DNA from: Bellilinea caldifistulae
GTDB lineage: Bacteria > Chloroflexota > Anaerolineae > Anaerolineales > Anaerolineaceae
Direction of reading: 5' to 3'
Assembly (NCBI RefSeq): GCF_001306055.1
Contig: NZ_LGHJ01000016.1
Coordinates: 180,001-212,000, forward strand
Length of the DNA: 32,000 nucleotides
The notes beneath the pieces were generated by a model, which saw only the letters and a program-made list of their open reading frames with translations, searched no databases and had not been told where the DNA came from. Of the stretch, positions 5,501-27,218 are shown piece after piece (positions within the stretch are counted from its first letter, which is position 1; every line of letters begins with the position of its first letter). A program made the translations under genes and the position numbers.

Positions 5501-5576
5501 GACATATGGGGTATAATCAAATCAAGGTGCCATAGGTGGGCATCTCATCTTTGTGAATGGAAGGAAATAGAGCGAT

Positions 5577-6584: not shown

Positions 6585-6599
6585 GTGGCGGGTAGCCCA

Positions 6600-7253
6600 T
6601 TAATCCAAGTAGTAAGTCATGTGCTGAAGCTTGATGATCGGGTCAATGTTCTCCACATGAATATCGTCCGGTAAATTGAGACTGATGGGGGCGTAGTTAA
6701 GGATGGCGCGAATGCCGGCATCCACCAATTCTTCTGCTACCATTTGAGCAACGGATGCCGGAACGGTCAACATGGCTATCTTAATTCCCAATGAAGGGAT
6801 TATTCTTTTCATTTCCCGACTGTCTTGAATGATCAGACCGGCAACTTCCTTACCGATTTTTTCAGGATCATTATCAAAAGCCGCTGTAATACGGAAACCG
6901 TGTTCAGCGAAGCCTTGATAACGGGCAAGTGCGTTGCCCAAATCACCCATCCCAACCAGGGCAAGGTCCCAAATTCTGGTTAATTTTAAGATGGATTGCA
7001 GTTGTTCAACCAGAAAGGCAACCGAGTAACCTGTGCCTTGTTTGCCAAATTCGCCAAATTGAGAGAGGTCTTTGCGAATTTGCGCAGCAGAGATACCAAT
7101 GGCTTCACCCAGTTCCTGCGAAGAGGTGGTCTTAATCCCTTCGCGGTACATGTGCTCTAGGGCTTGAAGATAGCGGGGTAGCCTCCCAACGACAATATCG
7201 GGAACGGTTCTGGTGATCATTTGACCTCGCTGTTGATCAAGATTAGATTCCAT
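6600..7253 (-). CDS. rex: Redox-sensing transcriptional repressor Rex
   Basis: 217 aa. Winged-helix N-terminus (RLPRYLQAL...SSQELGEAIGISAAQIRKDLSQFGEFGKQGTGY) and a Rossmann domain (LVGMGDLGNAL, NYAP). Confidence 0.9.
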   Translation of the reverse strand: MESNLDQQRGQMITRTVPDIVVGRLPRYLQALEHMYREGIKTTSSQELGEAIGISAAQIRKDLSQFGEFGKQGTGYSVAFLVEQLQSILKLTRIWDLALVGMGDLGNALARYQGFAEHGFRITAAFDNDPEKIGKEVAGLIIQDSREMKRIIPSLGIKIAMLTVPASVAQMVAEELVDAGIRAILNYAPISLNLPDDIHVENIDPIIKLQHMTYYLD

Positions 7254-8186: not shown

Positions 8187-8258
8187 TGCGCCCGCCGAGA
8201 CTCGAACTCGGGCTCTTACCTCCGGAGGGTAATGTGATATCCACTTCACTACGGGCGC
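8187..8258 (-). tRNA. tRNA-Arg (anticodon CCG)
   Basis: The reverse complement GCGCCCG-TA-GTGA-AGTGGATA-TCAC-A-TTACC-CTCCGGA-GGTAA-GAGC-CCGAG-TTCGAGT-CTCGG-CGGGCGC-A folds as a 72-nt cloverleaf with a 7-bp acceptor stem, a TTCGAGT T-loop and anticodon CCG. No CCA is encoded. Confidence 0.9.
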
Positions 8259-8284
8259 AAAAAAGACTATTTGAATGTGCCTAG

Positions 8285-8312
8285 ATTTTACCACGCTTTC
8301 GGATGAGGACAA
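8285..8312 (-). promoter_or_regulatory. Candidate promoter for tRNA-Arg
   Basis: On the minus strand: TTGTCC (8312-8307), 16-nt spacer, TGg-TAAAAT (extended -10; the -10 is 8290-8285). The -10 ends about 27 nt upstream of the mature tRNA 5' end. Confidence 0.4.
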
Positions 8313-8323
8313 GATTTTTAAAA

Positions 8324-9310
8324 TTAATTGATCAGGGGGCTTAATTGAGCTAATTCATTACGCAGTTGAGTGATGATTTTCTGATTCCCGCCTTCGTCAC
8401 CCATCCGCCGAAATTGATGTTTTTTATGGGCAAGTTCAGCACAAAGTTGATAAAAATGGGATATTGTGCGGAAAGTTGGTTTCCCCAGATATTTGAGGAG
8501 GGCTTTAATCCGGGCAATATTGGAAAAGGATTCGAGGTACTGTTCCATAGTAATGATTCCCAAATGCACCTCTTCTTTTAACTCGAACTGAATTAACTTT
8601 TTCTCTCGGTGAATGACATAGATAATGAAAATACTCAGCCCAATCCAACCGGTCCAGTCAAATATAGTTCCTACCACAATCCCAGCCACGCCTGGGATTA
8701 AGGCGGGTATGGTATTGTGGATACTGTGCAGTAAGATGGAAACGATCAGACCTGAGATTGGGTATAAAAATCTTTTCGGCCAATTGGGGGTTAAGCGAGC
8801 CAGTGCCAGACCAATTCCGAAGAATGCTGTATAGAATGGGTGCTGCCAGCCAACCAAAACCACCCGAATGAAAACCAAAGTGAATAAGCCCGGATAGCCA
8901 CTTTCCAAATACCCAAAGTTGTAAATATAGTAGGTGTTTTCGGTAGCCGCAAAGCCCAGGGCGGTGATTCCGGCGTAGACAATTCCGTCCAGCACAGAAT
9001 CGAACTCTTTGCGGTAAAAATAGAAGACGATTAGAACTGCCATACCCTTTAAAATTTCTTCAATCAGCGGGGCGATGACTGAACCGGTGGTTTGCTGAGC
9101 AATAAGTTCCGAACCGGTGAGGAAAAATATGCCTGCTCCCAGCAGCGTATTGATCAAGAAAGCAAAACCAGCAGCAATCACTGCACCCCATACGAAGGCA
9201 CCACCTAACAGGTGACGGGGTTCCTTTTCAAAGCGGTCCAGCCAGTAGACGAAAAAGGCGAACACCAGCATAGGTAAAAAGCCAAATATGACCGAAAGGA
9301 TAAAGCCCAT
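8324..9310 (-). CDS. PrsW-family intramembrane metalloprotease
   Basis: 328 aa, polytopic. Carries the PrsW signature motifs EEILKG and HSIHN, plus a soluble C-terminal tail. Confidence 0.8.
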   Translation of the reverse strand: MGFILSVIFGFLPMLVFAFFVYWLDRFEKEPRHLLGGAFVWGAVIAAGFAFLINTLLGAGIFFLTGSELIAQQTTGSVIAPLIEEILKGMAVLIVFYFYRKEFDSVLDGIVYAGITALGFAATENTYYIYNFGYLESGYPGLFTLVFIRVVLVGWQHPFYTAFFGIGLALARLTPNWPKRFLYPISGLIVSILLHSIHNTIPALIPGVAGIVVGTIFDWTGWIGLSIFIIYVIHREKKLIQFELKEEVHLGIITMEQYLESFSNIARIKALLKYLGKPTFRTISHFYQLCAELAHKKHQFRRMGDEGGNQKIITQLRNELAQLSPLIN

Positions 9311-9331: not shown

Positions 9332-10351
9332 TTAAGTCGTTTCAAAAAGGCGGGCAATTTCATCTCGATTGAATTTATTCAATAACCTTTGACCGTCAGG
9401 TGTAATTTGATAGACAAGCGGATCTCCGTGATTTACTTTGCCGAAAATGGTGGCGGTAATTCCATTTTCTTGTAATGCTTTGACAATCGCCTGACTTGAA
9501 GAGGAGGAGGCTGCAATGATCAACGCACCAGAAGCGATGCTACCCATCGGATCCAATCCAAAAAAGTCACAAACTTTGCGCGATATGGGTGGAATGAATA
9601 TTTGGGAAGGTTCAATGATCAGCGTGTTCTGACTGGCGTATGCCAGTTCCCATAATGCAGTTGCCAGACCGCCTTCGGTTGGGTCGTGCATAGCATGGAC
9701 TTCACCGGCGTTGACTGCAATTTCTGCATCCCGGCTGACGGAAATGCCGGGGTCTATCAAGAAATTTTGGGCCTGGGTGATTTCGTCTGGGTTTAAGGCA
9801 GTCGTCAACCGATCGGGAAATTCTTTCGCCAAAAGGGCGGTAGCTTCGATGGGAATGCCTTTTGTCAAAATCAAGGCATCGCCTGGTCTGGCTCCGCGGG
9901 GGGTAATTAATTTTTCACGCGTGGTCTCACCGATCAAGGTTGTTACCAAAATTGGCCGGTCTAACCCACTGGTAATTTCCGTATGACCGCCAATCAAAAC
10001 GATGCCCATTTCCCGGCAGGTCTGGCTCACATCCGCAGTGATTTCGTGAACAAGGGAAGGGGTGGTCTTGTTTTCCGGAAGCAGCATGGTGAGCAGCATC
10101 CATTGAGGTTTTGCGCCGGTTGTTGCAATATCATTGGCGGCTATTTGAACAGCATACCAGCCAATTTGACGGGTTGCAAAAGTAATCGGTTCGCTTTTGA
10201 ATACCAAAGAGCGATCCCCAAAATCCACGACGGCGCAGTCCAAACCTATGCCGGGGCCCAAGATAACCCTTTCTGCGGTTGTGGGCAGGGTGTCAATCAG
10301 ATGTTGTAAATATTCATGGGGTAATTTACCGAGCGGAAAGGTAAAATTCAT
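9332..10351 (-). CDS. AIR-synthase-related protein (PurM superfamily; HypE/ThiL/SelD-like)
   Basis: 339 aa. Motifs GLDCAVVDF...FKSEPITF, ANDIATTGAKP, GGHTE and HDPTEGGLA are typical of the PurM-fold ATP-binding superfamily. The specific subfamily is not resolved. Confidence 0.75.
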   Translation of the reverse strand: MNFTFPLGKLPHEYLQHLIDTLPTTAERVILGPGIGLDCAVVDFGDRSLVFKSEPITFATRQIGWYAVQIAANDIATTGAKPQWMLLTMLLPENKTTPSLVHEITADVSQTCREMGIVLIGGHTEITSGLDRPILVTTLIGETTREKLITPRGARPGDALILTKGIPIEATALLAKEFPDRLTTALNPDEITQAQNFLIDPGISVSRDAEIAVNAGEVHAMHDPTEGGLATALWELAYASQNTLIIEPSQIFIPPISRKVCDFFGLDPMGSIASGALIIAASSSSSQAIVKALQENGITATIFGKVNHGDPLVYQITPDGQRLLNKFNRDEIARLFETT

Positions 10352-11115
10352 TTCTCCTCGTCTTTGATGGCGGCAAAGCGTTGAATGATGGGTTTAATGC
10401 GGTCATAATGTGAGCCTTTCCAGTAGATTTGACCGCAATCGGTGCAGCGACTGAATTCGTTGTAGTATAAACGGGTCAATGGCAATAATTGATCGAGGAT
10501 GGATTGTTTGTCAACCTTTTCCAGTAAGCCGTTGCAACGCGGGCAGCGGCTGAAAGGTTTGAGATATGCCCCGAGTTGAAAATGATTAATGACCTCGGTT
10601 AGTTGGGAGAGAGGATCGTCTTGCCGGACACAATAACCCCGCTGGATGATTTTTCTCTTTAACAATCCGCGGTCGCGGGTCAGCACAACTCGATTCTGCT
10701 CGACCGCGATGCTGGCAATTTGTTCATCATCAAATTGGTGGTTGTAGCAGGCATCAATGCCCAAAAGGCGCAAATAGGCGGTTAATTTTCCCAAATGATT
10801 GTCCAAAATGAATTTTGCAAAACGATCACCAAAATTTATTTGTTCGGTTTGCCATGGGTGGATATGAATATGATCGCCGCAAATGGGATGATAGGCTAAA
10901 TCAACCTCTTGCTGGTTGACTTTGATTTTTCCAATTTCGGGGTGAGGGACACCAATGGCTTCCACAATGTGTTTCAAAGAGGTTTTTTCGTGCAATTGAA
11001 AACGAACTAGGTGCGGATCGGCTTTGGATTTGAAAAAATCGGTCAAAGCCCCGTGAAAAATAACCGTAATCTCTCCACGGTACAGGGATTCAGTAGACAA
11101 ATTCTCGGATGTCAT
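10348..11115 (-). CDS. Beta-grasp (Ub-Mut7C) + Mut7-C PIN-like RNase domain protein with a C-terminal Zn-ribbon
   Basis: N-terminus ITVIFHGALTDFF...IVEAIGVPHPEIGKIKVNQQEV (Ub-Mut7C-like). Core FILDNHLGKLTAYLRLLGID...VVLTRDRGLLKR. Zn-ribbon CPRCNG...CTDCGQIYWKGSHY. The track start is 11169; the ATG at 11115 (MTSENL...) is more plausible and still overlaps the upstream gene by 26 nt. Its stop overlaps the downstream start (ATGA). Confidence 0.8.
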   Translation of the reverse strand: MTSENLSTESLYRGEITVIFHGALTDFFKSKADPHLVRFQLHEKTSLKHIVEAIGVPHPEIGKIKVNQQEVDLAYHPICGDHIHIHPWQTEQINFGDRFAKFILDNHLGKLTAYLRLLGIDACYNHQFDDEQIASIAVEQNRVVLTRDRGLLKRKIIQRGYCVRQDDPLSQLTEVINHFQLGAYLKPFSRCPRCNGLLEKVDKQSILDQLLPLTRLYYNEFSRCTDCGQIYWKGSHYDRIKPIIQRFAAIKDEEK

Positions 11116-12298
11116 AGCGGCTGATGTGGGGAGTTCCACTTTTCGACCCGAAAACCAGATTGGCTTCAATGGCTTCGCCTTGTTGAATGCGTTCAGCGGC
11201 GCTCAATGGCTGGAGTGATGTTTGATACGCTGTTTGGACATAAGGCAGATTCTCGTTTTCGACCAGCTCGGAAAAGTATATCAGGTCTTCGGCATCCAAT
11301 GGCATGGCGTTGATAAGTTGGCTCGTATCCTGAACATGGGCATCTGCGTAAGTTTTACCACCTGCGCCGAGCAGCACGATAATGCCAACGGCTACTCCGC
11401 CGGCTTTGATATTTCGGACGGCTTGAAGGACATCCTGTGGGGTGCCGGGCTTGTGTAAAAATTTTAGCAAGGGTTCGTGACCCGATTCCATACCGATATA
11501 AACCCGCTTTAAACCCATTTCGGCAAGGCTGGCAAAGTCCTGCGCAGTTTTGCGCTCTCCGCTGAAGCCATCCAAAAAGGCGAAGATTCCCCCCAGTCGT
11601 TCAACATCGAGTTCCGCGTGAACCACTTCGAGAAGGCTGATCAGGCGGGGCATAGGGATGACCAGAGCGTTCGCATCGCCCAGGAAAATTGTACGCCTGA
11701 GGCTGAGGCCTTCCCCCAAGAAAGCCTTTACCGCGCGGATATGCTCGCGGAATTCGTCTACGCGTTTGATACGAAAAGGGCGGTCGCGGTAGAAATCACA
11801 AAATGTACAGGTGTTGAATGAGCAGCCTTCTGCTGCCTGCAAAACGACGGAAATATATTGATCTGGCGGAAGAATACCAACCGGTTTGTAAACCTGATGA
11901 TATTTCTTGGCGTCTGCTACGGCAGATGAATTGTCAAACGCTGCCGCAATTTGCAAATCGTGCCAGCCTTTCTCATCCAAGGGCGGGTTGAATTTAATCT
12001 GATTGTTGCGCAGATCTGAAAGCAAGTCATTCAGCAGGATATGACCGCGTTGAATCAAATTGACGGACTCGTCCGGGGAAAGCCAACGGCGATGGCGGTT
12101 TTTATCGGGCGTCTGCCACTTGGCCACCACTTTGCCATCTAATCCACGGCGGTAAGATACTTCATTCACCAGCGCAGTCCACAACCGCCCAGCCAGGTCA
12201 TAACTAAATACCTCTTTGCTGCCAATGCTCACTGTCAGGCAGTTGGTTTTAATGCTGATTGTAACCGATTGATTCTTCCAGTAACCTTGATGAACCAT
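11090..12298 (-). CDS. Radical SAM enzyme with atypical Cx4Cx2C cluster motif and an N-terminal extension of about 150 aa
   Basis: 402 aa. Motif EGCSFNTCTFCDFY, confirmed on the DNA at 11798-11824. Downstream TIM-barrel-like elements are FLGDANAL, YIGMESG and IIVLLGAGG. Confidence 0.8.
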   Translation of the reverse strand: MVHQGYWKNQSVTISIKTNCLTVSIGSKEVFSYDLAGRLWTALVNEVSYRRGLDGKVVAKWQTPDKNRHRRWLSPDESVNLIQRGHILLNDLLSDLRNNQIKFNPPLDEKGWHDLQIAAAFDNSSAVADAKKYHQVYKPVGILPPDQYISVVLQAAEGCSFNTCTFCDFYRDRPFRIKRVDEFREHIRAVKAFLGEGLSLRRTIFLGDANALVIPMPRLISLLEVVHAELDVERLGGIFAFLDGFSGERKTAQDFASLAEMGLKRVYIGMESGHEPLLKFLHKPGTPQDVLQAVRNIKAGGVAVGIIVLLGAGGKTYADAHVQDTSQLINAMPLDAEDLIYFSELVENENLPYVQTAYQTSLQPLSAAERIQQGEAIEANLVFGSKSGTPHISRYDIREFVY

Positions 12299-13128: not shown

Positions 13129-14403
13129 TTATATGGCTTGTGGGGGCTGAGCATGAATGAAGGTCAATTGACGATTACGCCAGAACATCAGGAATCCGAT
13201 TAATTGCAAAGCCCCACCGACAATCAGGGCAACACCAATCCCGGCAAGGTCGGCAATGGCTGTGCCGATGAGCGGAGAGAGGATAGAAGAAACATATTGC
13301 AGACCTTGCGCAATGGAAACAAAGGTTGCGCTGTATTCGGTTGGTACGGTTTTCATCAACTCATCGAAGAAGACCAGATTCAAGCCGGCCTGAAAAATTC
13401 CGTTAATCCCTGCAAACAGGGTGATGAGAACGACATTGTGAGTGCTGGCAACCAGAATCGGGTAGATGGCTGCCCCAAAAGTCGTCCAGAGCAGGACATT
13501 CCGCGATCCACGCCGGCGCGATTGTTGAGTCCAAAAGAAGTAGCCCACAATCACAATGGCAGTTTGAGCCGTATTGATGGTGGCAATCCAGCTGTTGCTG
13601 GCCTGAACCTCGCGAACAAAGTAAAGTGGGAAAAGCGGTAAGGTCAAGGCTGCACCGGAGAGGAAGACAAAGCGTTTGATAACAAATGACTGGAAGGGTT
13701 TTTCCCGGCTTATAAGGGTAAGATATTCACCAATAGTTTGCTGAAAAGGTTTTTTCCCGATCTGGCTTGGTTTTTGAAAGTCGGGCAATTGAATATGAGA
13801 AGAGAAGTAATAGCTGATCAATCCCCCCACCGAAAGGAAGATAAAGATGACCTGAAAATTAGTTGGGAAGGCAATTCGATCCAAAAATTGACCGATCACG
13901 AAGACGGCCACTGCGGTGGTTACTCCCAAGATTGACCAGCGACGGGTCATCAACTCGTAGCGCAGATTGGGGCCGGCTACAGCGTTCATGACCACCGAAA
14001 AGGAGATGTTCAACAGCGTTTGAGGGATGGTTGCCAGAGCCCACACAACCAAAATGCCGGTAATTAAAGGCTGACCCTGCAGCAGGAAAGCCAGAGCGCC
14101 GGTCAGGGCATAACTCATGATGACACCCAGACGGGCAAGGCTGAACCATGGGATGATCTTTTTTTGATTTTGCAGAAACTGCCCCATTGGAATTGCCAGG
14201 ATCAAGCCGGCTAAGGCAGGCATGGAGGTCAACAACCCAATTTCGTATGAAGAAGCCCCCAATCGCGTGAGAAATACCGGTAAAAATGGAGCAGCAGCGT
14301 TGGCGAGCCCTACGCCAATGGCATCAATTTGAACATTGGTAAAATTTTTGGATTGGACTTTATCTAATTCTGCAGGATTTGAAAAGTATCTTTTTAGGTT
14401 CAC
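13129..14403 (-). CDS. MFS transporter
   Basis: 424 aa, with about 12 hydrophobic segments in two halves. Loop motifs are typical of MFS (for example the RRGSRNVLL-type cytoplasmic loop). Confidence 0.8.
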   Translation of the reverse strand: MNLKRYFSNPAELDKVQSKNFTNVQIDAIGVGLANAAAPFLPVFLTRLGASSYEIGLLTSMPALAGLILAIPMGQFLQNQKKIIPWFSLARLGVIMSYALTGALAFLLQGQPLITGILVVWALATIPQTLLNISFSVVMNAVAGPNLRYELMTRRWSILGVTTAVAVFVIGQFLDRIAFPTNFQVIFIFLSVGGLISYYFSSHIQLPDFQKPSQIGKKPFQQTIGEYLTLISREKPFQSFVIKRFVFLSGAALTLPLFPLYFVREVQASNSWIATINTAQTAIVIVGYFFWTQQSRRRGSRNVLLWTTFGAAIYPILVASTHNVVLITLFAGINGIFQAGLNLVFFDELMKTVPTEYSATFVSIAQGLQYVSSILSPLIGTAIADLAGIGVALIVGGALQLIGFLMFWRNRQLTFIHAQPPQAI

Positions 14404-14467: not shown

Positions 14468-16699
14468 TTACAACAGGATGTCATAATCGCCAATTTGAAT
14501 TGGCTCGGCGTTTTCAATCTGAATGTCAAAGCGAGCCCGCCATTGCAGTATCTGCCGGGCAAATTCCAACCATGGCTCGGTGGCAGGTTGAAGACCGGCG
14601 TTAATCCATTGATTGATTTTTTGAAGCCAATCGTGAAGATCGCTTTGAATAGGTTGAAAGAACAGGATCAATGGCTGAAAGTCCCAGATTACCACCCTGC
14701 CATCCGCGCTGGAACTGATCAGGGTATTACCATCCGGGATAAACCCCAATCCGCTGGCGGGTTGATTATGCAGTTCGATGGTGAGGAGCGGTTTCAAATC
14801 GGCTTCATGGCGGATTTGGATTTTTCCATCCAACCCCATGCCGCAAAGCAGCGGTAAAGTGGGATGGTAGACCAACTGGTTGATTGGAGTAGAAGACGGT
14901 GAGGGCAGTGTAAGAGGTTTGAAGGTCGAAAGGCTGAATTGCTGGATCGTGTGATTGCGGATTGCCACAGCAAATTTTTGGCGATTATTAATTGCCATTG
15001 TCAGAGGAGCATCCTCTAAGCCAGAGATGGAATGTATGCGGTGATTTCCATGGACAGAGATTATTTGACAGGTGCGGTCAGCGGTGGCACAGAGCAGTAG
15101 ATGATTGTCAGGCGTAATCAGTAGGGAAAAAATCTCATTCCCGATTTGAACGGGAGGACGTGCCGCCAAACCGCTTGGAAAGTGCCACGATTGAATCGCT
15201 CCATCAAAAGCGGCCGTATAGAATATCCTGCCATCGGATCGAAAGACCATCCCCCGGACTTGACCTTTATGCCCATCCAGTGTTTTTAGTAAGGCATGAT
15301 CCTGGCGGCGAAAAATGCGCAGGCGATGATCTCCACCAGCACAGACCAGATAACGCGCCTGTGGGTCGTAGATGATCAGCCGTGTCGGAGAAACCGGGCT
15401 TAGAAGGGGGCTTTGCCATTCAAGCGAGGTCAGATTAAGAAACTGAATAGAGGAGTCGAGGGAGCCAAAACCAATTTCCATTCCGAAGGGTGAAATCGCC
15501 ATGCTGGTGATACTGCCAGCAGGGGATTGGAGAATCGCTTTCCGGAAGACGGGAAGGGGTTTGGAGAAACAAACTGATGCCAGCCAAGCGACCTGATTGA
15601 GTTGAGGGTCATGCTCGAAGTTGATTGCATGTTCGCTGAGGTGATGAAGTAAATAGGCAGACCAGAACAAAGGAGCGCGAGATAAAAGGCGCAGCCAGAG
15701 CGGTTCTGATGGATTTAGCAGGATGGCTTGAACAACCCTTTCCCAATCCGCGGGGGTTAATTCCCATAAAACGACAGCAGAACGGCTGTCGGAAAGACGG
15801 GAAAGCCATTCGACATGACCGCTTATGCGTGCCTGAGACAGAATTTTTTGCCTTAAAGCCGGACTGGCAGATGAGTATGCCTCTACCAGCCACTGGTGGG
15901 TAAAGTCAAATGTTTCGTATTGATCCCATTGGTTTGAGAGAAAATAATAGAGGGCTTTTTCTGTCGGAACCGATGGTGAAAGATTTTTCTGTTGACAAAT
16001 TTGTCTGGCCGTCGGATCATCAAAATAGACTGCTAGCCTGCATAGAAAATCCACTGCAATGGTGTTCTCCGTTTCAGCCAGCGAGGATAATCGCTTAAGG
16101 ATGATTTGTTTCTCTGATTGGGAGGTTTGAGGATAGAGAGCCAGCAAGTGGCTTGGTTTGTCAGGTGTATTGAAAAGGAGCAGGCTAAGCAGGTGTGAGA
16201 ACCGTTGCCGGGCTGGAGATGGGGCAGATTCGATGATTTTCATTTGGGTTGAGGGTTGGGCGTGGTGAAAAAAATACTCGGCGAGAAGTTCGAGATTTTC
16301 GCTGGATTGCGCATAGCCACCATCTGGAAGGTATAAAAAGGAAAAAACGGCTTGCAAATGGGGGTTTGGACAGGGCAGGGGATTGAATTTTAAGTGTGTG
16401 ATTGCTGGTGGATAATCCCTTTCAATTGCAAGCCGGTACAGGCTGAGGATTGCTTCTGGGTTGTTTTGATGGCTTAACTGGATCAGTGCGTCAAGGGCAT
16501 CTTCCCTGATGATCGGCAGAGGGGCAAAAGCGCAGGCTTCTTCAATGAGAGCAATACTTTCCGGGTTTGGATCAGTCAATAGTATTCGAATGATCCCTCG
16601 TTGAATCAAACTCACAAGTTCTTCTTTGGGAAGAGACGGGAATTCGCTTACGGAAAGGAGTGTGCGACGGAATTCTTCGAAAAGACGCTGCTCACTCAT
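14468..16699 (-). CDS. Large repeat protein: helical N-terminal region of about 400 aa plus a C-terminal WD40 beta-propeller
   Basis: WD40-like repeats in the C-terminal ~330 aa, for example GHKGQVRGMVFRSDGRIFYTAAFDGAIQSWHF and SSSADGRVVIWDF. The N-terminal half is Leu/Ala-rich and predicted helical. The track start at 16705 is TTG; the ATG at 16699 (MSEQRL...) lies 2 nt after the upstream stop. Confidence 0.8.
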   Translation of the reverse strand: MSEQRLFEEFRRTLLSVSEFPSLPKEELVSLIQRGIIRILLTDPNPESIALIEEACAFAPLPIIREDALDALIQLSHQNNPEAILSLYRLAIERDYPPAITHLKFNPLPCPNPHLQAVFSFLYLPDGGYAQSSENLELLAEYFFHHAQPSTQMKIIESAPSPARQRFSHLLSLLLFNTPDKPSHLLALYPQTSQSEKQIILKRLSSLAETENTIAVDFLCRLAVYFDDPTARQICQQKNLSPSVPTEKALYYFLSNQWDQYETFDFTHQWLVEAYSSASPALRQKILSQARISGHVEWLSRLSDSRSAVVLWELTPADWERVVQAILLNPSEPLWLRLLSRAPLFWSAYLLHHLSEHAINFEHDPQLNQVAWLASVCFSKPLPVFRKAILQSPAGSITSMAISPFGMEIGFGSLDSSIQFLNLTSLEWQSPLLSPVSPTRLIIYDPQARYLVCAGGDHRLRIFRRQDHALLKTLDGHKGQVRGMVFRSDGRIFYTAAFDGAIQSWHFPSGLAARPPVQIGNEIFSLLITPDNHLLLCATADRTCQIISVHGNHRIHSISGLEDAPLTMAINNRQKFAVAIRNHTIQQFSLSTFKPLTLPSPSSTPINQLVYHPTLPLLCGMGLDGKIQIRHEADLKPLLTIELHNQPASGLGFIPDGNTLISSSADGRVVIWDFQPLILFFQPIQSDLHDWLQKINQWINAGLQPATEPWLEFARQILQWRARFDIQIENAEPIQIGDYDILL

Positions 16700-16701
16700 G
16701 G

Positions 16702-17274
16702 TCAACGGAAAATCAGCGGATCAATCCCGCTGAAAAGAAGTTCACCGCTTTGTTCGATAATGATTTCACCGGTTGGAACATGCAACAGGTCAGCCATCGA
16801 ATAACGGGAAGAAAAAAAGTGAATGGTCTTATTGCTGGAGCCAATCCAGAGATTTTCCGAAGGATGAGATTTGTCATAACGACCGGCAATCAGCACATCA
16901 ATCAACTCCGAAAGCTTATTTGAAGCCGGGAAAGTATTAATCTCTTCAGGGGTAAAGCCAGTAAAAAGGATTACGGAAAGGTGGGTTTTTTGGCGGATTT
17001 CTGCCAAAAAACGCAATAATGGCCTCAGCTGTTGCAGCGGCTCGCCGCCGCTGATGGTTATCCCTTCAATAGAAGGGCTGATTCGAAAAATCCGGGACAG
17101 TAACCCACTCAATTGGACTGATGCTCCGCCCGTTGGGGAATGTGTTTGTGGATTGAAGCAACCCGGACAATTCAGGGTGCAACCCTGCAACCAGAGGACG
17201 GCTCGTTTGCCGGGACCGTTCGAATAACTAAAAGGCTCAAAATGATGAATCCGCAGCGTCTCTGCCACACTCAT
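16702..17274 (-). CDS. NrdG/PflA-like radical SAM activating-enzyme homologue (small, 4Fe-4S/SAM)
   Basis: 190 aa. SNGPGKRAVLWLQGCTLNCPGCFNPQTH resembles the NrdG N-terminus (.GPG.R...F..GC...C.GC.N) with a canonical Cx3Cx2C motif. The later GGEPL is a SAM-binding motif. Confidence 0.8.
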   Translation of the reverse strand: MSVAETLRIHHFEPFSYSNGPGKRAVLWLQGCTLNCPGCFNPQTHSPTGGASVQLSGLLSRIFRISPSIEGITISGGEPLQQLRPLLRFLAEIRQKTHLSVILFTGFTPEEINTFPASNKLSELIDVLIAGRYDKSHPSENLWIGSSNKTIHFFSSRYSMADLLHVPTGEIIIEQSGELLFSGIDPLIFR

Positions 17275-17487
17275 TTATCCTTTGATTTCCAACGGCGGTA
17301 TCAAATTTGAATTACCGATAGGGGGTTCCTGGCTCTCAGCGGTCATTTTTCGCTCAAGGATGTGATTTCCCAACGCTTCTTCAAGAGCCTGAGTAATTTC
17401 CAGGCAGGTGTTTCCTTTTACTCCGCGGACGCTGATTTCAACCTTTCCGTTGGGGTGGATTGTCAATTCGATTTCCTGGATTTCCAT
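17275..17487 (-). CDS. DUF2997-like small protein
   Basis: 70 aa. IELTIHPNGKVEISVRGVKGNTCLEITQALEEALG fits my recollection of the DUF2997 pattern (I...I..dG.v...v.G..G..C...t..le..lG). Its stop TAA is directly followed by the ATG of the next gene. Confidence 0.6.
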   Translation of the reverse strand: MEIQEIELTIHPNGKVEISVRGVKGNTCLEITQALEEALGNHILERKMTAESQEPPIGNSNLIPPLEIKG

Positions 17488-17496
17488 GACAAAGTC

Positions 17497-17874
17497 CTAT
17501 GCCATTCGGCGTAACAGTAAGTGAATTTTACCAGCCTCGTCTTTCTCCTCGACAAGATAAAAGCCCTGTTCTTCGAGTTTTTGACGAGCGGCATGATAAG
17601 CATACCGCTGGTTGATTCGACGGACAAGGCTGGTCCGTTTGACTCCCATAACGCTGAACCAGTCCGCAACGATTTCGAATTTGCCTTGACGTCGTCGGAA
17701 TCCAATTTCTGCGCTCAGCGGAGGACGAACTTTGATCTCAACATCGGCTTGCTCACCGCCCAGGGAAGTAATCTTCAGTTCTCCCTGCTCGACCGGATAG
17801 CCCAAATCGCGCAGAGCCAGGAGTAAGATTTCCGCATCCACCCATTCCGTCTTGAATTTTGAGATGTGTGACAT
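17497..17874 (-). CDS. DUF1257 (Ycf35-like) protein
   Basis: 125 aa. The N-terminus MSHISKFKTEWVDAEILLLALRDLGY is characteristic of Ycf35/DUF1257 proteins (family recognised from memory). Confidence 0.7.
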   Translation of the reverse strand: MSHISKFKTEWVDAEILLLALRDLGYPVEQGELKITSLGGEQADVEIKVRPPLSAEIGFRRRQGKFEIVADWFSVMGVKRTSLVRRINQRYAYHAARQKLEEQGFYLVEEKDEAGKIHLLLRRMA

Positions 17875-17886
17875 TCTTTTACCTTG

Positions 17887-19488
17887 CTACGATAAACGAA
17901 TAACCGGTTGATTTTCCAATATGATAATCCCAGTTTGCAAATCGCGGGCAGTGATTGTCAATCTTTTTTGAGAATCGATGAAAAAAGAGATTTCAAAGCG
18001 AGGAATTGAGGGTTCAGCCGGAGGGTCAGCGATGAGAAATGTTGGGCAATGTTCATTGACAAAAAAATAGGTTCTCTCCTCGATTTGTTGGGAAGGAAGT
18101 TGAATGATCCTTGCCGAACCCTGCGGATCAAAAATCAGCTCAAGATTCTCCTGGGAGAAACCGCTTTCGCGTGAATTGCGTATTTCAAATATGGCCAGCC
18201 CCAGTTTCTGTTGACCCTCGTATGAGGCTTTGATCGTCAAATGCGAGATGGGCTGGGGGGTTGGATAAGATGTCCCGCTGGAAACAATTTTCTGGAAAGC
18301 GTATCGTCGGCTGTGTGGTTCAACATAACGGATGGCATAATCATGGCGCACATAATCAAGGATGTCCATTCCAGATGCAAACAGAGCCGCCCCTCTTGCT
18401 ACGGCGTCGAGAGGGCGTCTAACCTGGACAGGGGTAGATTCGAAGAAATTTTTTACATGTTGTTGAACGGCCGGTATCAAACTGCTGCCGCCAATCATCA
18501 ATACTGAGCTGATTTGGTCCTGAGAATATCCTCTCTCATAAGCCTGATTGAGAACATGGCGAAACAAATCGCTCACCTCATGGAAGAGATGGTTGCGTTC
18601 GAGGATGTTTTCAAACTCATCGCGGTTGAGGGTCAGGTTGATGAGCTTGTCATCACGAAGGCGGATGTCGCCGGTTGAGGCTTGTGGGTCATGTGAAAGG
18701 ACTTGTTTGACCCCTTCACAGGCGGATAGGATTTGGGTGCTTGCCTGCCTGACAAGAGGATGATCATCCGTGAGGGAAAACCGCGATAGTACTTCCTGAT
18801 AGAGCCATTGGTCAATCCGCATGCCTCCAATGTTTTTCCCAGCTTTTCCCAGCACCCGGCAGAGCGGTTTGTTTTTGTCTGTGGGTGATTCTTCCCCGAC
18901 AATGACCATTGCGGCGTTCATAGTTCCCCCGCCGAAATCAAAAACGAACAAAATTGTCCCGGGCTTAACCTGAATTCCGTAACCAATTGCAGCAGCGACA
19001 GGTTCGTCTATCAGGGAAATTTTGGGCAGGTGGTTGGATTCTGCCAGCGTATTCAACCAGTTGGTATAGAATTCAAAGGATTCAACTGGTGCGCTAAAGG
19101 CAACCCTGGCGGGTGAAATGGCCTGTTCTTCACGCAGCATCGTAAAAATGGTCGTTAGAAAGTCCTGGGCGGCTTTTGAAGGAGTTGTTTCGCGCTCATC
19201 CAACCGGATGCGGATGGGACTACGACTGAGAATATATTGTTTCATCCAGCGCATGGTACGGCGGGAGTCGCCCAGACCTTGTTGGAGAATTTGATTACCG
19301 ATCCAGAGGTGTCCTTCTGGTGAATAATGGATTAAAGATGGGATGAGAGGAATTTGCTCTCCATTTTGTGAAAACAGACGGCAGTAATCCGGAATTTTGA
19401 TCAGGGAAACCTGCTGGGAGTTTTCGTCCCAGCCAGCGATCAGGGTATTTGACGTCCCAAAATCAATTCCTAAAGCGGAAATTCCCAT
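17887..19488 (-). CDS. Divergent Hsp70-family ATPase (NBD plus truncated beta substrate domain, no helical lid)
   Basis: 533 aa. Motifs GIDFGTSNT, DEPVAAAIGYG, FDFGGGT, MIGGSSLIPAVQ and ARGAALFA, then about 155 aa ending in LTITARDLQTG, which resembles the DnaK SBD-beta motif. The C-terminal alpha-lid length is missing. Confidence 0.85.
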   Translation of the reverse strand: MGISALGIDFGTSNTLIAGWDENSQQVSLIKIPDYCRLFSQNGEQIPLIPSLIHYSPEGHLWIGNQILQQGLGDSRRTMRWMKQYILSRSPIRIRLDERETTPSKAAQDFLTTIFTMLREEQAISPARVAFSAPVESFEFYTNWLNTLAESNHLPKISLIDEPVAAAIGYGIQVKPGTILFVFDFGGGTMNAAMVIVGEESPTDKNKPLCRVLGKAGKNIGGMRIDQWLYQEVLSRFSLTDDHPLVRQASTQILSACEGVKQVLSHDPQASTGDIRLRDDKLINLTLNRDEFENILERNHLFHEVSDLFRHVLNQAYERGYSQDQISSVLMIGGSSLIPAVQQHVKNFFESTPVQVRRPLDAVARGAALFASGMDILDYVRHDYAIRYVEPHSRRYAFQKIVSSGTSYPTPQPISHLTIKASYEGQQKLGLAIFEIRNSRESGFSQENLELIFDPQGSARIIQLPSQQIEERTYFFVNEHCPTFLIADPPAEPSIPRFEISFFIDSQKRLTITARDLQTGIIILENQPVIRLS

Positions 19489-19509
19489 CCCGTTTGAGCC
19501 TGAACGCTG

Positions 19510-21048
19510 CTAACCTTCTGAACGGATATCCAGTTGAATCGGAACGAATTGATGTTCTGCTTCTTCGGTCTGTTGAAACGAAGCCGATTGAGCGCGGCCT
19601 TCTCGCAGCCAGTTGCGCAGCATGGTGATATTTTCCCGCTGAGAAACCGAAAGGGGTACCTGACGTTTGAGTGAGTAAAGGATGTCCTCGGTTGTAAATT
19701 CGCGTAGACCATCATTGAAACCAATATACATCGCATCAATCACCGCCTGTTCGATCTCCGATCCAACATATCCGCTGGAGGCTTCAGCCAGTCGGTCGAG
19801 ACGATAATCTTCCGGTAATCGGCCGCGTTTACGCAGATGAACAGCAAAAATTTCGCGCCGTTCTTCAAACGTGGGAAGATCCAGGAAAAAAATTTCATCA
19901 AATCTGCCTCGCCGGAGCAGTTCCGGCGGAAGGCTGGAAATATCATTGGCGGTGGCAACGACAAAGCAGGGAGCAGTTTTTTCCTGCATCCAGGTCAAGA
20001 TGGTGCCAAATACGCGGGTACTGGTGCCACTATCCAAACCTCCGTGAGCGAGGGCCTTCTCCATTTCATCAATCCAAACCACACAAGGAGAAACGGTCTC
20101 GGCCAGTTTAAGAGCTCGGCGGGTTCTTTCCTCCGATTCGCCTACCAGACTGCCAAAAAGGGAACCAACATCCAGGCGCAGCAAGGGTAAACGCCACAAC
20201 CCGCCGATCATTTTTGCAGTCAGACTTTTGCCGGTTCCGGGAATTCCGATGAGACCAATCCCTTTAGGAGCAGGCAAACCGTAAGCGCGGGCTTCCTGTG
20301 AAAAAGCGCGTTCGCGTAAGCGCAGCCAGTTCTTAAGCACACCCAGTCCGCCAACATCATCGGGGGTTTCGGTTACCGCGAAAAACTCGAGTGCTTCGCT
20401 TTCGCGGATGATTTGCTTCTTTTCCTCGGTAACCAGATCAATATCGCGGTCGTCTAATAAGCCGTCTTTGACAATGGATTTCGCGAACACCCGCTGGGCT
20501 TGAGAGGCAGTCAGTCCAATCGCCGCCTGAATCAATTTTTCTTTTCCCAATGGAGTCAGGTTGACTTTGACGCCGGGGGTCTGAATGAGCCGGTTGAGGA
20601 CTTCTTCCAGTTCTGAGAAGGTTGGAAGGGGAAAATCCACCAAAACGGCGTCGTCTTTCAATTCATCCGGAATTTTTGACGAGAGTGAGGTAATCAAGAT
20701 GGACTTTTTGGAAAACTTCAACCGCTGGCTGACATTTCTTAATTTGCGTTTGATCTGCGGATTGTTCCAAATTTCATGAAAATCTTTGAGAACAAAGAGC
20801 GCCGGTATGGCCGGATCAGCCGCTTCGATTTGTTCCAGTGCCGTGAGTGGATCGCGGGCAGTGTTTGGATTACCGCTGCCGACTAGAAGTTGAAATCCAT
20901 CGGCGGCATCCCAACTCAGAAGCCGGCGCTGGGTCTGTTCGCAAACCCGCTGAATTGTGGTTAACAAGCGTTCCTCTTCTGGGGTGACGAACACCAGTAA
21001 AGTGAAACGAGCTCTCAGGTATAAATCGAGTTGATCTTCTACATTCAT
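19510..21048 (-). CDS. Ycf46-like AAA+ ATPase (degenerate N-terminal domain plus classic-clade AAA C-terminal domain)
   Basis: 512 aa. Walker A GIPGTGKS, Walker [10 protein letters not shown], second region of homology [20 protein letters not shown]. The N-terminus [21 protein letters not shown] is typical of Ycf46-type proteins (from memory). Confidence 0.85.
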
Positions 21049-21154
21049 AAGATTTGATTTCTAATTCGTTCTTTTCAAGTGATTATAACGCATCCTTACT
21101 TTTCTTTCGGGTTGTGACATTTATCAACCAGAGCAGTGACAGAGGAATACTGAA

Positions 21155-21177
21155 AGTGAATTGGCTTTCACTATAAT
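21155..21177 (+). promoter_or_regulatory. Candidate -10 element with overlapping inverted repeat upstream of the AOR gene
   Basis: Perfect TATAAT at 21172-21177, 60 nt upstream of the ATG at 21238. The inverted repeat AGTGAA-N6-TTCACT (21155-21172) abuts and overlaps it. No convincing -35 was found. Confidence 0.3.
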
Positions 21178-21237
21178 TGAATTGAGGGAAAACGTGAAAT
21201 CCAATTCTTCCAAAATCTTCCAGATAAGGAGAGGCAG

Positions 21238-26949: not shown

Positions 26950-27218
26950 AAGCCTATTTTATAGGAATTTTCGGTAAAAATGAGGGTATTGTTTGTATCA
27001 CCCCAAAGTACATGACATTCGTCCTAATTTGACTGTAATATCAGAATTCAGACCAATTTAATATTGTATTAAGATAACAGAGTCGGTATAATTTTCTCTA
27101 ATGAGGTTTTAATCTGATCCAAAGGAGGTGGTTATCTGCAGGAATTTTTATGAGGTATCCTGAGAATTTTTTTACACCCAATTTCCCAAAAAATTTTAGA
27201 GAAAGGATGGAGAGCAAT

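Follow-up and report, generated by a model that had tools for sequence, protein, structure and literature searches.

Gene organization of the locus

The window analysed here, a stretch of 32,000 nucleotides from Bellilinea caldifistulae (Chloroflexota), packs six open reading frames, all on the minus strand, into positions 14468-21048 (Table 1). Re-examination confirmed the block and the spacings given in the initial annotation: from the AAA gene onwards, the junctions measure 21, 12, 9, 0 (TAAATG) and -4 nt, the last being a TTGA overlap that becomes a gap of 2 nt when the ATG start is used. One terminator-like hairpin was found within the block, where none had been reported, at the 3′ end of the radical SAM gene (minus strand, 16733-16713). 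Its stem is not kept in the closest relatives, and terminator-like sites are no more frequent than chance (7 found, 10.5 expected from shuffles); the hairpin is most easily explained as incidental to the SGIDPL codons. The confirmed spacings and the lack of conservation of the sole internal hairpin point to a real operon, for which co-transcription is predicted.

A consensus scan of the spacer upstream of the operon found a sigma-70-like site (TTCACG-17-TATAGT, minus strand, 21198-21170), which is a candidate only, because promoter-like sites overall occur at chance level (10 found, 8.5 expected from shuffles). The flanks consist of ordinary chromosomal genes (MreB, Rex, PrsW, AIR-synthase-like, Ub-Mut7C, AFOR and GlmS), and Pfam annotation of the window ORFs found no mobile elements there, which bears out their earlier description as housekeeping-like. 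The MFS gene follows the cluster in nine loci, all of them Anaerolineae, and a family HMM found no relatives of it beside the system outside Anaerolineae.

Table 1. Features of the operon and its borders in the window
Feature	Position	Strand	Remarks
MFS transporter	13129..14403	-	Pfam MFS_1; 64 nt downstream; lineage-specific neighbour, not a core part
Helical/WD40/C-terminal-tail protein	14468..16705	-	745 aa from TTG; 743 aa from ATG at 16699
C-terminal tail of helical/WD40 protein	14471..14638	-	W-L-x-F...W-R-x-R-F-D-I...G-(E/D)-(F/Y)-D-I-x-L
Radical SAM enzyme, glycyl-radical-activase type	16702..17274	-	190 aa; CX3CX2C at codons 32-39 (17158-17181)
DUF2997 protein	17275..17487	-	70 aa; Pfam DUF2997, 60 bits (cut-off 24.1); G-x-x-C loop
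DUF1257/Ycf35-like protein	17497..17874	-	125 aa; Pfam DUF1257, 69 bits (cut-off 22.2)
Lidless Hsp70-like ATPase	17887..19488	-	533 aa; nucleotide-binding domain and beta-sandwich substrate-binding domain; Pfam HSP70
Tandem AAA ATPase, 'Ycf46-like'	19510..21048	-	512 aa; degenerate N-terminal AAA-like domain and active classical AAA domain
N-terminal domain of AAA protein	20314..21048	-	approximately aa 1-245; AAA-like fold, P-loop lost
Divergent intergenic region	21049..21237	.	189 bp, common to AFOR gene; candidate operon promoter on minus strand

Components of the system

Profile annotation with Pfam, a check proposed in the initial annotation, returned every domain call again for all six proteins. 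In the AAA protein, AAA and AAA_lid_3 match residues 266-456, and the family keeps Walker A (GIPGTGKS), Walker B (WIDEMEK) and an RxGRFDE motif. Pfam finds no match in the N-terminal region (approximately aa 1-245), and hhalign aligns this half of the family with the C-terminal AAA half (probability 85.8%, E 5e-6, 131 columns). The protein is thus predicted to be a tandem of a degenerate N-terminal and an active C-terminal AAA domain with conserved ATPase motifs. It shares 70-77% identity with orthologues of other phyla. In pore loop 1 (S/G-L-V-G-E-S-E) the usual aromatic residue is missing, which leaves threading uncertain.

The Pfam match of the Hsp70-like protein falls in its nucleotide-binding part, and its phosphate-binding motifs (DFGTSNT and DFGGGT) align with those of Hsp70 nucleotide-binding domains. 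Aligned with structures of mitochondrial Hsp70 and of DnaK, the sequence matches in the nucleotide-binding domain, in the linker and at the end of the substrate-binding domain (PPAxPxIPxFEIxFxID); a helical lid is absent because the chain stops about 13 residues beyond that end. The family comprises 244 clusters (50% identity) at E<1e-30. That this Hsp70 has no DnaJ or GrpE nearby holds for the window, in which no GrpE-like ORF occurs anywhere and none of the annotated ORFs was recognized as a J-domain protein, but not generally: a divergent GrpE gene adjoins the Hsp70-like gene in 17 of the 36 system loci, as a seventh component that the window version lacks.

Both small proteins are well conserved across phyla, DUF1257 at 40-51% and DUF2997 at about 52-57% identity. 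The DUF1257 protein, identical to B. caldifistulae BECAL_01826, has invariant M1 S2, D71 W72, R90 Y91 A92 Y93, Q103 G104 F105 and a C-terminal LRRM(A), with a near-invariant H3; its AF2 model (pLDDT 88.6) has no match in the PDB at E<=0.001. An alignment of 34 DUF2997 homologues shows an LG motif and an invariant cysteine, Cys28 in the window (codon 17404-17406), within the conserved G-x-x-C loop.

The radical SAM protein matches Fer4_12 (110 bits)/Radical_SAM in Pfam and carries the activase N-terminal motif, CX3CX2C and GGEP. It scores 113.4 bits against NrdG (TIGR02491), under the cut-off of 126.1, and its sequence match to PflA (40 bits) includes the N-terminal RIHxFE...GPG.R...QGC...C..C.N motif. 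PflA is also the best fold match of its model (3cb8, E 1.5e-6). It is assigned to a large system-specific subfamily of PflA/NrdG-type activases, with thousands of members and a predicted activase activity; the idea of a stray NrdG was rejected, given this subfamily. The earlier remark that no glycyl radical enzyme lies nearby stands: the canonical glycyl-radical signature is missing from all window ORFs of at least 100 aa and from every system protein of the window, and about 20 radical-SAM-containing loci hold no NrdD or PFL-type enzyme.

In the helical/WD40 protein, WD40 matches cover approximately aa 395-700, and Pfam finds none in the N-terminal ~390 aa. Full-length orthologue matches come from Verrucomicrobiota, Planctomycetota, Desulfobacterota and Armatimonadota, and propeller-less versions retain the N-terminal helical part and the tail. 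With 21-36% identity it is the fastest-evolving component (36% against a Bellilinea sp. MAG, compared with 84% for the AAA protein), and WD40 paralogues are multiplied in some loci (L070, L086 and L093). By its sequence, the protein represents a system-specific, fast-evolving family. The tail glycine, Gly739 in the window (codon 14489-14491), is present in 28 of 28 aligned C-terminal tails from about six phyla.

Distribution across phyla

The system was found in at least seven phyla (Chloroflexota, Desulfobacterota, Verrucomicrobiota, Planctomycetota, Acidobacteriota, Armatimonadota and Cyanobacteriota, including a cyanobacterial plasmid). Loci were retrieved with three separate seeds, the Hsp70-like, DUF1257 and radical SAM proteins. 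With the Hsp70-like family as the only seed, 80 genome loci were obtained; about 30 of them have DUF1257/DUF2997 no more than 10 kb away, as do nearly all members with enough flank of the window's own Hsp70 subfamily, a linkage spanning Chloroflexota, Desulfobacterota, Verrucomicrobiota, Planctomycetota, Armatimonadota and one Cyanobacteriota MAG. Look-ups seeded on DUF1257 (3/3 loci) and on the radical SAM protein (4/4 loci), both made with precomputed Pfam labels independent of our own HMMs, also recovered system genes.

The initial annotation had considered the triad of AAA, DUF1257 and DUF2997 genes to be unusually interleaved with the three others; Hsp70-DUF1257-DUF2997-radical SAM-helical/WD40 is in fact the commonest arrangement. 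Gene order varies, as in Verrucomicrobiales (L014, DUF1257-DUF2997-rSAM-AAA-WD40-Hsp70) and Planctomyces (L025, DUF2997-rSAM-WD40-AAA-DUF1257-GrpE-Hsp70), and in cyanobacteria the genes are split into DUF1257-AAA and DUF2997-GrpE-Hsp70 units. In Thermanaerothrix (L002), there is no adjacent AAA gene. The adjacency of DUF2997, radical SAM and helical/WD40 genes is nearly constant, and nearly every locus with a radical SAM gene has it directly after the DUF2997 gene. The recurrent components are the tandem AAA protein, the lidless Hsp70-like protein (with GrpE in many relatives), DUF1257 and DUF2997, joined in about half or more of the loci by the radical SAM activase and by at least one helical/WD40 protein with the conserved tail. 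The machine is modular, with between a third and a half of the loci lacking any given one of the radical SAM, helical/WD40 and GrpE genes.

Proposed function and alternative explanations

Confinement to close relatives had been named as an outcome that would speak against a functional association; instead, the same six families co-localize, in differing orders, in at least five phyla, which supports the view that they form a functional unit rather than a chance adjacency. The best explanation of the whole, to which we would give about an even chance, is that B. caldifistulae carries a copy of a widespread multi-component system, a self-contained ATP-driven remodelling complex with a stress or surveillance output. 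The two-motor remodelling machine first proposed remains the most economical molecular reading and gains strength because distant Hsp70-like proteins occur as Rosetta-stone fusions to WD40 or to HEAT repeats.

Gene context and sequence suggest how its steps might proceed. The proteins would assemble into one complex with the helical/WD40 protein as scaffold or recognition subunit; the Hsp70-like protein would clamp a defined peptide segment of a partner, possibly the tail of the helical/WD40 protein or the C-terminus of DUF1257, both invariant, and the AAA ring would remodel or unfold the bound subunit or client. DUF1257 and DUF2997 may be dedicated small subunits coupling both motors. The split of the cyanobacterial genes suggests one small protein per motor, in which case DUF2997 could stand in for the absent J-protein. 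The radical SAM enzyme would take hydrogen from one of the system's own proteins rather than from a classical glycyl-radical enzyme, candidate sites being the DUF2997 G-x-x-C loop and Gly739; systems that lack the radical SAM gene conserve these residues to the same degree, and they may be purely structural. What the system delivers is probably not bulk protein folding but a regulated response in stress or surveillance, whose trigger may be biotic (phage or mobile DNA) or abiotic (redox, oxygen, iron).

Two further explanations carry little weight. A fortuitous adjacency peculiar to this lineage, bringing together a spare NrdG, a spare DnaK paralogue, a Ycf46/Ycf35 set and a generic WD40 protein, could draw on the fact that the whole Anaerolineae neighbourhood is syntenic, unrelated flanking genes included, so that conservation within Anaerolineae alone would prove little. 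It is refuted by the cross-phylum neighbourhood analysis, in which the families recur together with rearranged order and unrelated flanks and three independent seed families recover the same set, and the Hsp70-repeat fusions also oppose it; its probability is negligible. A RiPP-like peptide-maturation cluster, in which the radical SAM enzyme would act on a DUF2997 precursor that the ATPases process and the MFS transporter exports, would account for the small ORF directly upstream of the radical SAM gene and the transporter downstream in the window. This is very improbable: DUF2997, with its invariant internal cysteine, is no hypervariable core peptide, about half of the loci have it without a radical SAM gene, the enzyme is of activase type with no SPASM/twitch or RRE domain in Pfam, NCBIfam or fold searches, and the MFS neighbour is restricted to Anaerolineae.

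A vertically inherited biogenesis, repair or stress module is a more serious, if still doubtful, contender. It would elaborate a Ycf35/Ycf46 function on a client encoded elsewhere (e.g. an Fe-S, redox or radical enzyme), the radical SAM protein activating an external glycyl-radical enzyme and the chaperones aiding its maturation or recycling. HscA/HscB, which act on IscU, and the Hsp70-fold reactivases of B12 dehydratases are precedents, and the high conservation of the AAA and DUF1257 proteins, the same syntenic chromosomal position across Anaerolineae genera whose Hsp70-like proteins are only ~47% identical, and a DUF2997-DUF1257 pair close to a gene annotated as ferredoxin in cyanophage P-SSM2 fit it. 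However, in none of the phyla does a client gene recur beside the system, the radical SAM subfamily goes with DUF2997 and not with any glycyl-radical enzyme, the spread is patchy outside Anaerolineae and Cyanobacteria with some copies plasmid-borne, and a fast-evolving subunit with multiplied paralogues is unexpected for a fixed housekeeping scaffold. These last features, together with shuffled gene order and swapped accessory modules, speak for an anti-phage or conflict system of a 'chaperone-thresholded' type, a contender just as doubtful, in which fast-evolving WD40/HEAT/FGE-sulfatase proteins would detect the invader, assembly would be gated by the two ATPases, and the radical SAM protein and/or DUF1257/DUF2997 would deliver a toxic or protective output. 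An FGE-sulfatase protein lies within or adjoins the cluster in five loci, in one beside a reverse transcriptase, which suggests a diversity-generating retroelement. A Pseudanabaena plasmid copy sits among RelE and PIN toxin genes, a Geminocystis plasmid copy (AAA, DUF1257 and DUF2997 only) adjoins AbiLi/RloB, zeta toxin and Ssp genes, one locus (L088) adjoins transposase, recombinase and primase genes, and another (L089) is followed by a HEPN gene. Yet no recognizable nuclease, protease, TIR or pore effector recurs, PADLOC returns only a generic AAA match, 21 loci outside Anaerolineae have heterogeneous flanks with strong defence matches in a few only, and defence islands do not usually show synteny of the kind seen in Anaerolineae. 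Conservation of the AAA, DUF1257 and radical SAM proteins is also strong, Ycf35/Ycf46 relatives are common in cyanobacteria and plastids according to the literature, and the DUF1257 subtype of the window does not occur among 2.9 million viral contigs.

Comparison with known systems

Profile libraries place the set in no characterized pathway or defence system, and no description of a system of this composition exists in PADLOC, NCBIfam or the searchable literature; the system is apparently undescribed so far. A literature link is cyanobacterial: the clustering of DUF2997, ycf35 and fed7 is conserved, and Fed7 has a DnaJ-like protein as binding partner (PMC4284462); ssl1263, fed7 and ycf35 are co-regulated by SigD as part of its stress regulon (PMC8875361), a point that also favours the biogenesis or stress module. 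These data suggest a link to Hsp70 and redox biology. Known glycyl-radical sites are buried, in a loop within a large barrel, whereas the tail glycine of the helical/WD40 protein lies 7-12 residues from the C-terminus, a difference that speaks against this glycine as a radical site. The tandem AAA architecture, for its part, resembles that of the FtsH-ternary conflict systems (PMC7159879), a likeness that counts for the anti-phage reading.

Organization of the operon

The initial annotation had described six tightly spaced minus-strand genes, and both the ORF coordinates and the gaps were confirmed (see table). The co-oriented genes are separated by 21, 12, 9, 0 and −4 nt, the last value being an overlap that becomes a gap of +2 nt from the ATG start; a gene for an MFS transporter follows 64 nt downstream of the operon, and a candidate promoter lies upstream of it. 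Every domain call made from the sequence was likewise reproduced by Pfam profile HMMs. The statement that the block contains no hairpin terminator had to be amended, as the radical SAM gene has one terminator-like hairpin within its 3′ end. Terminator-like sites are not enriched over shuffles, and since the stem of this hairpin is not kept in close relatives, it was rejected as a terminator; the reading of the six genes as one operon stands. BECAL_01826 of Bellilinea caldifistulae, an anaerobic filamentous member of the Anaerolineae, has the same sequence as the encoded DUF1257 protein.

Coordinates of the operon genes and of other features in the window and in related records
Feature	Record	Position	Strand	Remark
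AAA ORF	window	19510-21048	minus	first gene of six
Hsp70-like ORF	window	17887-19488	minus	
DUF1257 ORF	window	17497-17874	minus	
DUF2997 ORF	window	17275-17487	minus	
Radical SAM ORF	window	16702-17274	minus	
Helical/WD40 ORF	window	14468-16705	minus	
Candidate promoter	window	21198-21170		
Hairpin in radical SAM gene	window	16733-16713		rejected as terminator
AIR-synthase-like, Ub-Mut7C and 402-aa radical SAM genes	window	9332-12298	minus	in a row, overlapping as called
Multihaem cytochrome gene	window	27150-29405	plus	751 aa
DUF1257 gene	Treponema succinifaciens plasmid pTRESU01 (L094/L095)	8218-8625		
DUF2997-DUF1257 pair	Prochlorococcus phage P-SSM2 (L004)	147491-148070		adjacent and overlapping
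FGE-sulfatase-domain gene	Armatimonadetes MAG (L085)	5206-7017		

Two further features of the window lie apart from the operon. The genes for an AIR-synthase-like protein, a Ub-Mut7C protein (ubiquitin-like plus Mut7-C RNase) and a second radical SAM protein form a trio that is also adjacent in Thermanaerothrix (locus L002), while Longilinea (locus L001) has only the Ub-Mut7C and AIR-synthase-like pair; the trio looks like a second conserved module. The multihaem cytochrome, with cytochrome c7, c3 and MtrC-like matches, is encoded in a strict anaerobe.

Conservation of the gene set across phyla

Within the Anaerolineae the entire region is syntenic, unrelated flanks included, so that evidence from other phyla is needed. 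A genome scan seeded only on the Hsp70-like family (12-sequence alignment, A2) gave 80 loci from many phyla, which were annotated with HMMs built from the window's own proteins. As the HMM termed ‘N-terminal helical’ spans the entire helical/WD40 protein, its labels mean membership of the helical/WD40 family, and domain-level statements about this protein come from a separate comparison of full-length and propeller-less versions. The same families recur in the relatives in rearranged order, as in Verrucomicrobiales (locus L014, DUF1257-DUF2997-rSAM-AAA-WD40-Hsp70, rSAM denoting the radical SAM gene) and Planctomyces (locus L025, DUF2997-rSAM-WD40-AAA-DUF1257-GrpE-Hsp70). They are also found in a deltaproteobacterial MAG (L009), Planctomycetota (L034), Acidobacteria (L023), Armatimonadota (L010), a Cyanobacteriota MAG (L017) and filamentous cyanobacteria (L039, L070, L074), and the cyanobacterial Pseudanabaena plasmid pPg_01 carries GrpE-Hsp70-DUF1257-(two inserted genes)-DUF2997-AAA-repeat protein. 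When the Hsp70-like proteins were clustered, the window's own subfamily was accompanied by the system in almost every member with enough flank, and a large cyanobacterial clade was found mostly standing alone.

Loci seeded on other components, as read from precomputed Pfam labels, had system genes in three of three cases for DUF1257, including Desulfobacterales (locus L086, AAA-WD40-WD40-GrpE-HSP70-DUF1257-DUF2997-Fer4_12), and in four of four for the radical SAM protein. Among the 36 loci with DUF1257 or DUF2997, a sample biased by the Hsp70 seed, the Hsp70-like gene was present in 34, the repeat (helical/WD40) protein in 25, AAA in 23, the radical SAM gene in 18, a divergent GrpE (PF01025, 25-30 bits) adjoining the Hsp70-like gene in 17 and an FGE-sulfatase in 5. 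This co-localization across phyla bears out the earlier proposal of a unit rather than a chance adjacency, co-occurrence not being confined to close relatives. A system-level assignment was not found in the PADLOC and NCBIfam profile libraries, and literature searches on the DUF and Pfam numbers, on ycf35/ycf46 and on Hsp70/GrpE anti-phage systems returned no description of the gene set. It is a real, widespread multi-component system, which appears to be undescribed so far. Its components evolve at sharply different rates: compared with other phyla, AAA is 70-77% identical, DUF2997 52-57%, the radical SAM protein about 50%, DUF1257 40-51%, Hsp70 40-46% and the repeat protein 21-27%.

The two ATPases

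Catalytic or nucleotide-binding motifs are conserved in both ATPases, as they are in the radical SAM protein. The Hsp70-like protein matches Pfam HSP70 (PF00012) with 106.8 bits, and its DFGTSNT, DEPVAAA, DFGGGT and GGSSLIP motifs align to Hsp70 structures in the manner of an actin-fold nucleotide-binding domain. Residues 372-413 and 485-520, after the interdomain linker, align to the substrate-binding domain of mitochondrial Hsp70, in keeping with a beta-sandwich substrate-binding domain; the C-terminal alpha-helical lid is absent, the protein ending 13 residues past the last substrate-binding beta-strand motif. Members of the family are about 530 aa long and form 244 clusters (50% identity) at E<1e-30, and distant Hsp70-like proteins carry C-terminal fusions to WD40 propellers or HEAT repeats, which are a Rosetta-stone link to the repeat protein. 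The earlier remark that no DnaJ or GrpE lies near the Hsp70 gene holds for the window: no GrpE-like ORF was found there or in its closest relatives, and no DnaJ domain among the annotated window ORFs. A J-domain protein was not seen in any of the 36 related loci either.

Other Hsp70-like proteins were met outside this gene set. In five loci of Aggregatilineales/Anaerolineae (L019, L029, L030, L032, L036), genes of a second subfamily have, 6-21 nt downstream, a shorter ORF (189-374 aa) that matches the same Hsp70-like HMM, with neither DUF1257 nor DUF2997 nearby. Loci L040 and L081 encode sister proteins of about 920 aa, a size at which Hsp70-like representatives have HEAT repeats at the C-terminus.

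Two AAA units lie in tandem in the AAA protein. The N-terminal ~245 residues, left unannotated by Pfam, form a degenerate AAA-like domain, which matches the C-terminal half in hhalign (probability 85.8%, E 5e-6) and has lost the P-loop, the Walker A, Walker B and arginine motifs being kept in the C-terminal half. Pore loop 1 reads S/G-L-V-G-E-S-E throughout the family alignment, without the aromatic residue that substrate-threading classical AAA proteins typically have. The AAA domain and the family-specific degenerate N-terminal domain recur in the cyanobacterial proteins encoded beside DUF1257, the set with which this putative Ycf46-type ATPase was compared (44% identity over 97% of its length). 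Against models of known systems it scores 72 bits with PADLOC IetA and 65.7 against a cut-off of 510 with the NCBI IteA model.

The small proteins DUF1257 and DUF2997

DUF1257 (PF06868) scores 69 bits, the cut-off being 22.2. Both of its ends are invariant, the protein beginning with MSH (M1 and S2 invariant in the alignment, H3 nearly so) and closing with LRRMA, and it contains a QRYAYH motif; virtually all Ycf35 proteins are reported to have MSH (PMC13060386). A Foldseek search with its confident AF2 model (pLDDT 88.6) brought up a single viral homologue, which is unnamed, and nothing in the PDB at E<=0.001, so that no clue to function comes from the fold. When the PDB was searched by sequence, both DUF1257 and DUF2997 returned chance-level matches only, and a scan of viral contigs with the DUF1257 alignment found nothing. 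DUF2997 (PF11211, 60.1 bits against a cut-off of 24.1) has an invariant cysteine in a G-x-x-C loop. Residues of DUF2997 that might track the presence of the radical SAM gene were sought, and no such signal was found, since relatives within the subfamily that have no radical SAM gene show variants of the VRGVKG loop too.

Both families also occur in other settings. On the T. succinifaciens plasmid, the gene for a DUF1257 protein (33% identical, E 6e-6) has tail sheath/tube genes on one side and baseplate V/PAAR genes on the other, well inside a cluster resembling a contractile tail or injection system. This quite different context for the family is a hint that DUF1257 may serve more generally in assembly or loading. 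In phage P-SSM2, purM and a carbamoyltransferase gene separate the DUF2997-DUF1257 pair from a gene annotated as ferredoxin, and the pair therefore travels without the ATPases.

The radical SAM and helical/WD40 proteins

The top NCBIfam match of the radical SAM protein is NrdG (TIGR02491), with 113.4 bits, below the cut-off of 126.1. Its CX3CX2C, GGEP and activase N-terminal motifs are all invariant in the subfamily alignments, its sequence aligns to PflA residues 5-152, and its AF2 model (pLDDT 76) is a partial TIM-barrel closest to PflA, matching 3cb8, 8fo0 and 3c8f (E ~2e-6, probability 1.00) ahead of QueE. The gene directly follows DUF2997 in nearly all loci that have it. The initial annotation had noted that no glycyl radical enzyme lies nearby, and this extends to the relatives: no such enzyme (NrdD, PFL-like or GrcA) was found in the window or in about 20 radical-SAM-containing loci, no canonical RVxG[YFW] motif in a scan of the window, its system proteins included, and no NrdD near four subfamily members that were looked up. 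Members of this very large subfamily, thousands in the protein database, are automatically named ‘anaerobic ribonucleoside-triphosphate reductase activating protein’, which is probably a systematic misannotation affecting thousands of entries.

The helical/WD40 protein scores 78.4 bits with WD40 (PF00400, cut-off 27) and matches many propeller families at residues ~395-700. It represents a system-specific family, the orthologues from other phyla aligning end to end, and its propeller-less versions retain the N-terminal helical part and a C-terminal tail of ~80 aa. The tail ends in G-(E/D)-(F/Y)-D-I-x-L, with the glycine invariant in all 28 of 28 sequences. Proteins with an FGE-sulfatase domain are encoded inside or beside the system in the Armatimonadetes MAG (L085) and in loci L020, L023, L026 and L034; in L085 a reverse transcriptase gene (RVT_1) comes next, suggestive of a diversity-generating retroelement.

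Proposed mechanism

The two-motor remodelling or surveillance machine of the initial annotation is partly supported, the single unit being upheld by the cross-phylum evidence; the single complex and the subunit roles are what we infer. The six proteins would form one complex in which the helical/WD40 protein serves as scaffold or recognition subunit, the Hsp70-like protein (plus GrpE where present) and an AAA ring act as the two motors, with DUF1257 and DUF2997 as small subunits dedicated to the complex. The cyanobacterial genes are split into DUF1257-AAA and DUF2997-GrpE-Hsp70 units, a hint that each motor may have one small protein, DUF2997 standing where the J-protein would be. The activase keeps company with DUF2997 and the helical/WD40 gene, and in no case with a glycyl-radical enzyme; the simplest assumption is therefore that it acts on a protein of the system, an idea weakened by the equal conservation of the candidate glycine and cysteine where the radical SAM gene is absent.

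Taken further, these elements can be joined into a J-protein-independent Hsp70 machine, a joint reading that we consider improbable. DUF2997 and DUF1257 (Ycf35), as a new co-factor pair, would couple the lidless Hsp70/GrpE motor to the tandem AAA (Ycf46-type) motor, and the PflA/NrdG-type activase would place a radical on one of the system's own subunits, at the G-x-x-C loop of DUF2997 or the invariant C-terminal glycine of the helical/WD40 protein, yielding an oxygen- or attack-sensitive switch under the control of two chaperones. If this were true, plastid ycf35 and ycf46 would also gain a biochemical context for the first time.

Biological role and significance

A role in biological conflict and one in stress or maturation carry similar weight. 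The system is patchily distributed, its accessory modules are swapped (WD40, HEAT and FGE-sulfatase, once with a reverse transcriptase), the repeat protein diverges fast and has expanded paralogues, and some loci lie beside plasmid, toxin-antitoxin, Abi, Ssp, HEPN or transposase genes, all of which would suit a conflict role; such a role sits less easily with a strongly conserved core, deep synteny within the Anaerolineae and the heterogeneous flanks of most loci, and neither a recurrent effector nor a PADLOC match speaks for it. [quoted passage not shown]

Ycf35/DUF1257, and apparently Ycf46, are ‘conserved hypothetical’ proteins kept in cyanobacteria and plastid genomes, and together with DUF2997 they previously had no biochemical context. 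In seven phyla these families are now tied to Hsp70/GrpE, a tandem AAA protein and a glycyl-radical-type activase without its glycyl-radical enzyme. The gene set is a candidate novel type of chaperone-driven system, immune or stress-related. This raises the questions of which component binds which, whether a small protein replaces the J-domain and what the activase's hydrogen donor is.

Comparison with known systems

PADLOC-DB 2.0 yielded no complete system, its only matches being IetA (a generic AAA) and weak hits to PDC-M61B and HEAT-ARM, with none for DUF1257, DUF2997 or the radical SAM protein. The AAA protein has its top PADLOC hit in the anti-phage system IetAS; the likeness is limited to the generic AAA core, and the IetS protease is lacking. 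With the PflA-PflB/GrcA and NrdG-NrdD pairs, the radical SAM protein shares the activase N-terminal motif, CX3CX2C and GGEP, its top HMM being NrdG and its top structure PflA; unlike these activases, it scores under the NCBI NrdG cut-off, has no glycyl-radical enzyme or RVxG[YFW] motif in its operon and has DUF2997 and helical/WD40 as constant neighbours. The cyanobacterial and plastid set of ycf35, ssl1263, fed7 and ycf46 has the same DUF1257 and DUF2997 families, N-terminal MSH included, but this housekeeping set is described with ferredoxin and not with Hsp70, GrpE, radical SAM or WD40.

The nearest functional analogy is the DnaK/GrpE-ClpB bi-chaperone. As in DnaK-GrpE(-DnaJ)/ClpB, an Hsp70-family ATPase with nucleotide-binding and beta-sandwich domains, a GrpE-type factor (in many relatives) and an AAA+ protein are encoded together, which suggests that the Hsp70 hands substrates to the AAA+ ring. 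However, the window lacks the dedicated J-domain co-chaperone and GrpE of a canonical DnaK system, the system having no J-domain protein; its Hsp70-like protein is without a helical lid and is fused to WD40 or HEAT in some lineages; its AAA protein has one active classical domain behind a degenerate one, in contrast to the two active rings and M-domain of ClpB; and DUF1257, DUF2997, the radical SAM and the helical/WD40 proteins have no counterpart.

The nearest described gene-neighbourhood class is that of the chaperone-based NTP-dependent conflict systems (Kaur, Burroughs, Iyer, Aravind 2020), the text of which does not name DUF1257 or DUF2997 (PMC7159879). Its Hsp70-containing systems are centred on GTPases and tubulin, and its radical SAM enzymes are SPASM-fused or related to those of Memo-Ammecr1 systems, unlike the NrdG/PflA-like subfamily found here. 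The FtsH ternary systems of this class require a MoxR AAA+/vWA chaperone/co-chaperone pair, and none of the loci studied has one: neither the window nor the related loci with Pfam annotation yielded a MoxR or vWA family, and the second chaperone is Hsp70/GrpE. Yet their classical AAA protein has two FtsH-type domains, the N-terminal one inactive (PMC7159879), and the system described here has the same tandem of inactive N-terminal and active C-terminal AAA domains, as well as large alpha-helical and beta-propeller proteins, a radical SAM enzyme as in some FtsH ternary versions, and filamentous or otherwise complex bacterial hosts.
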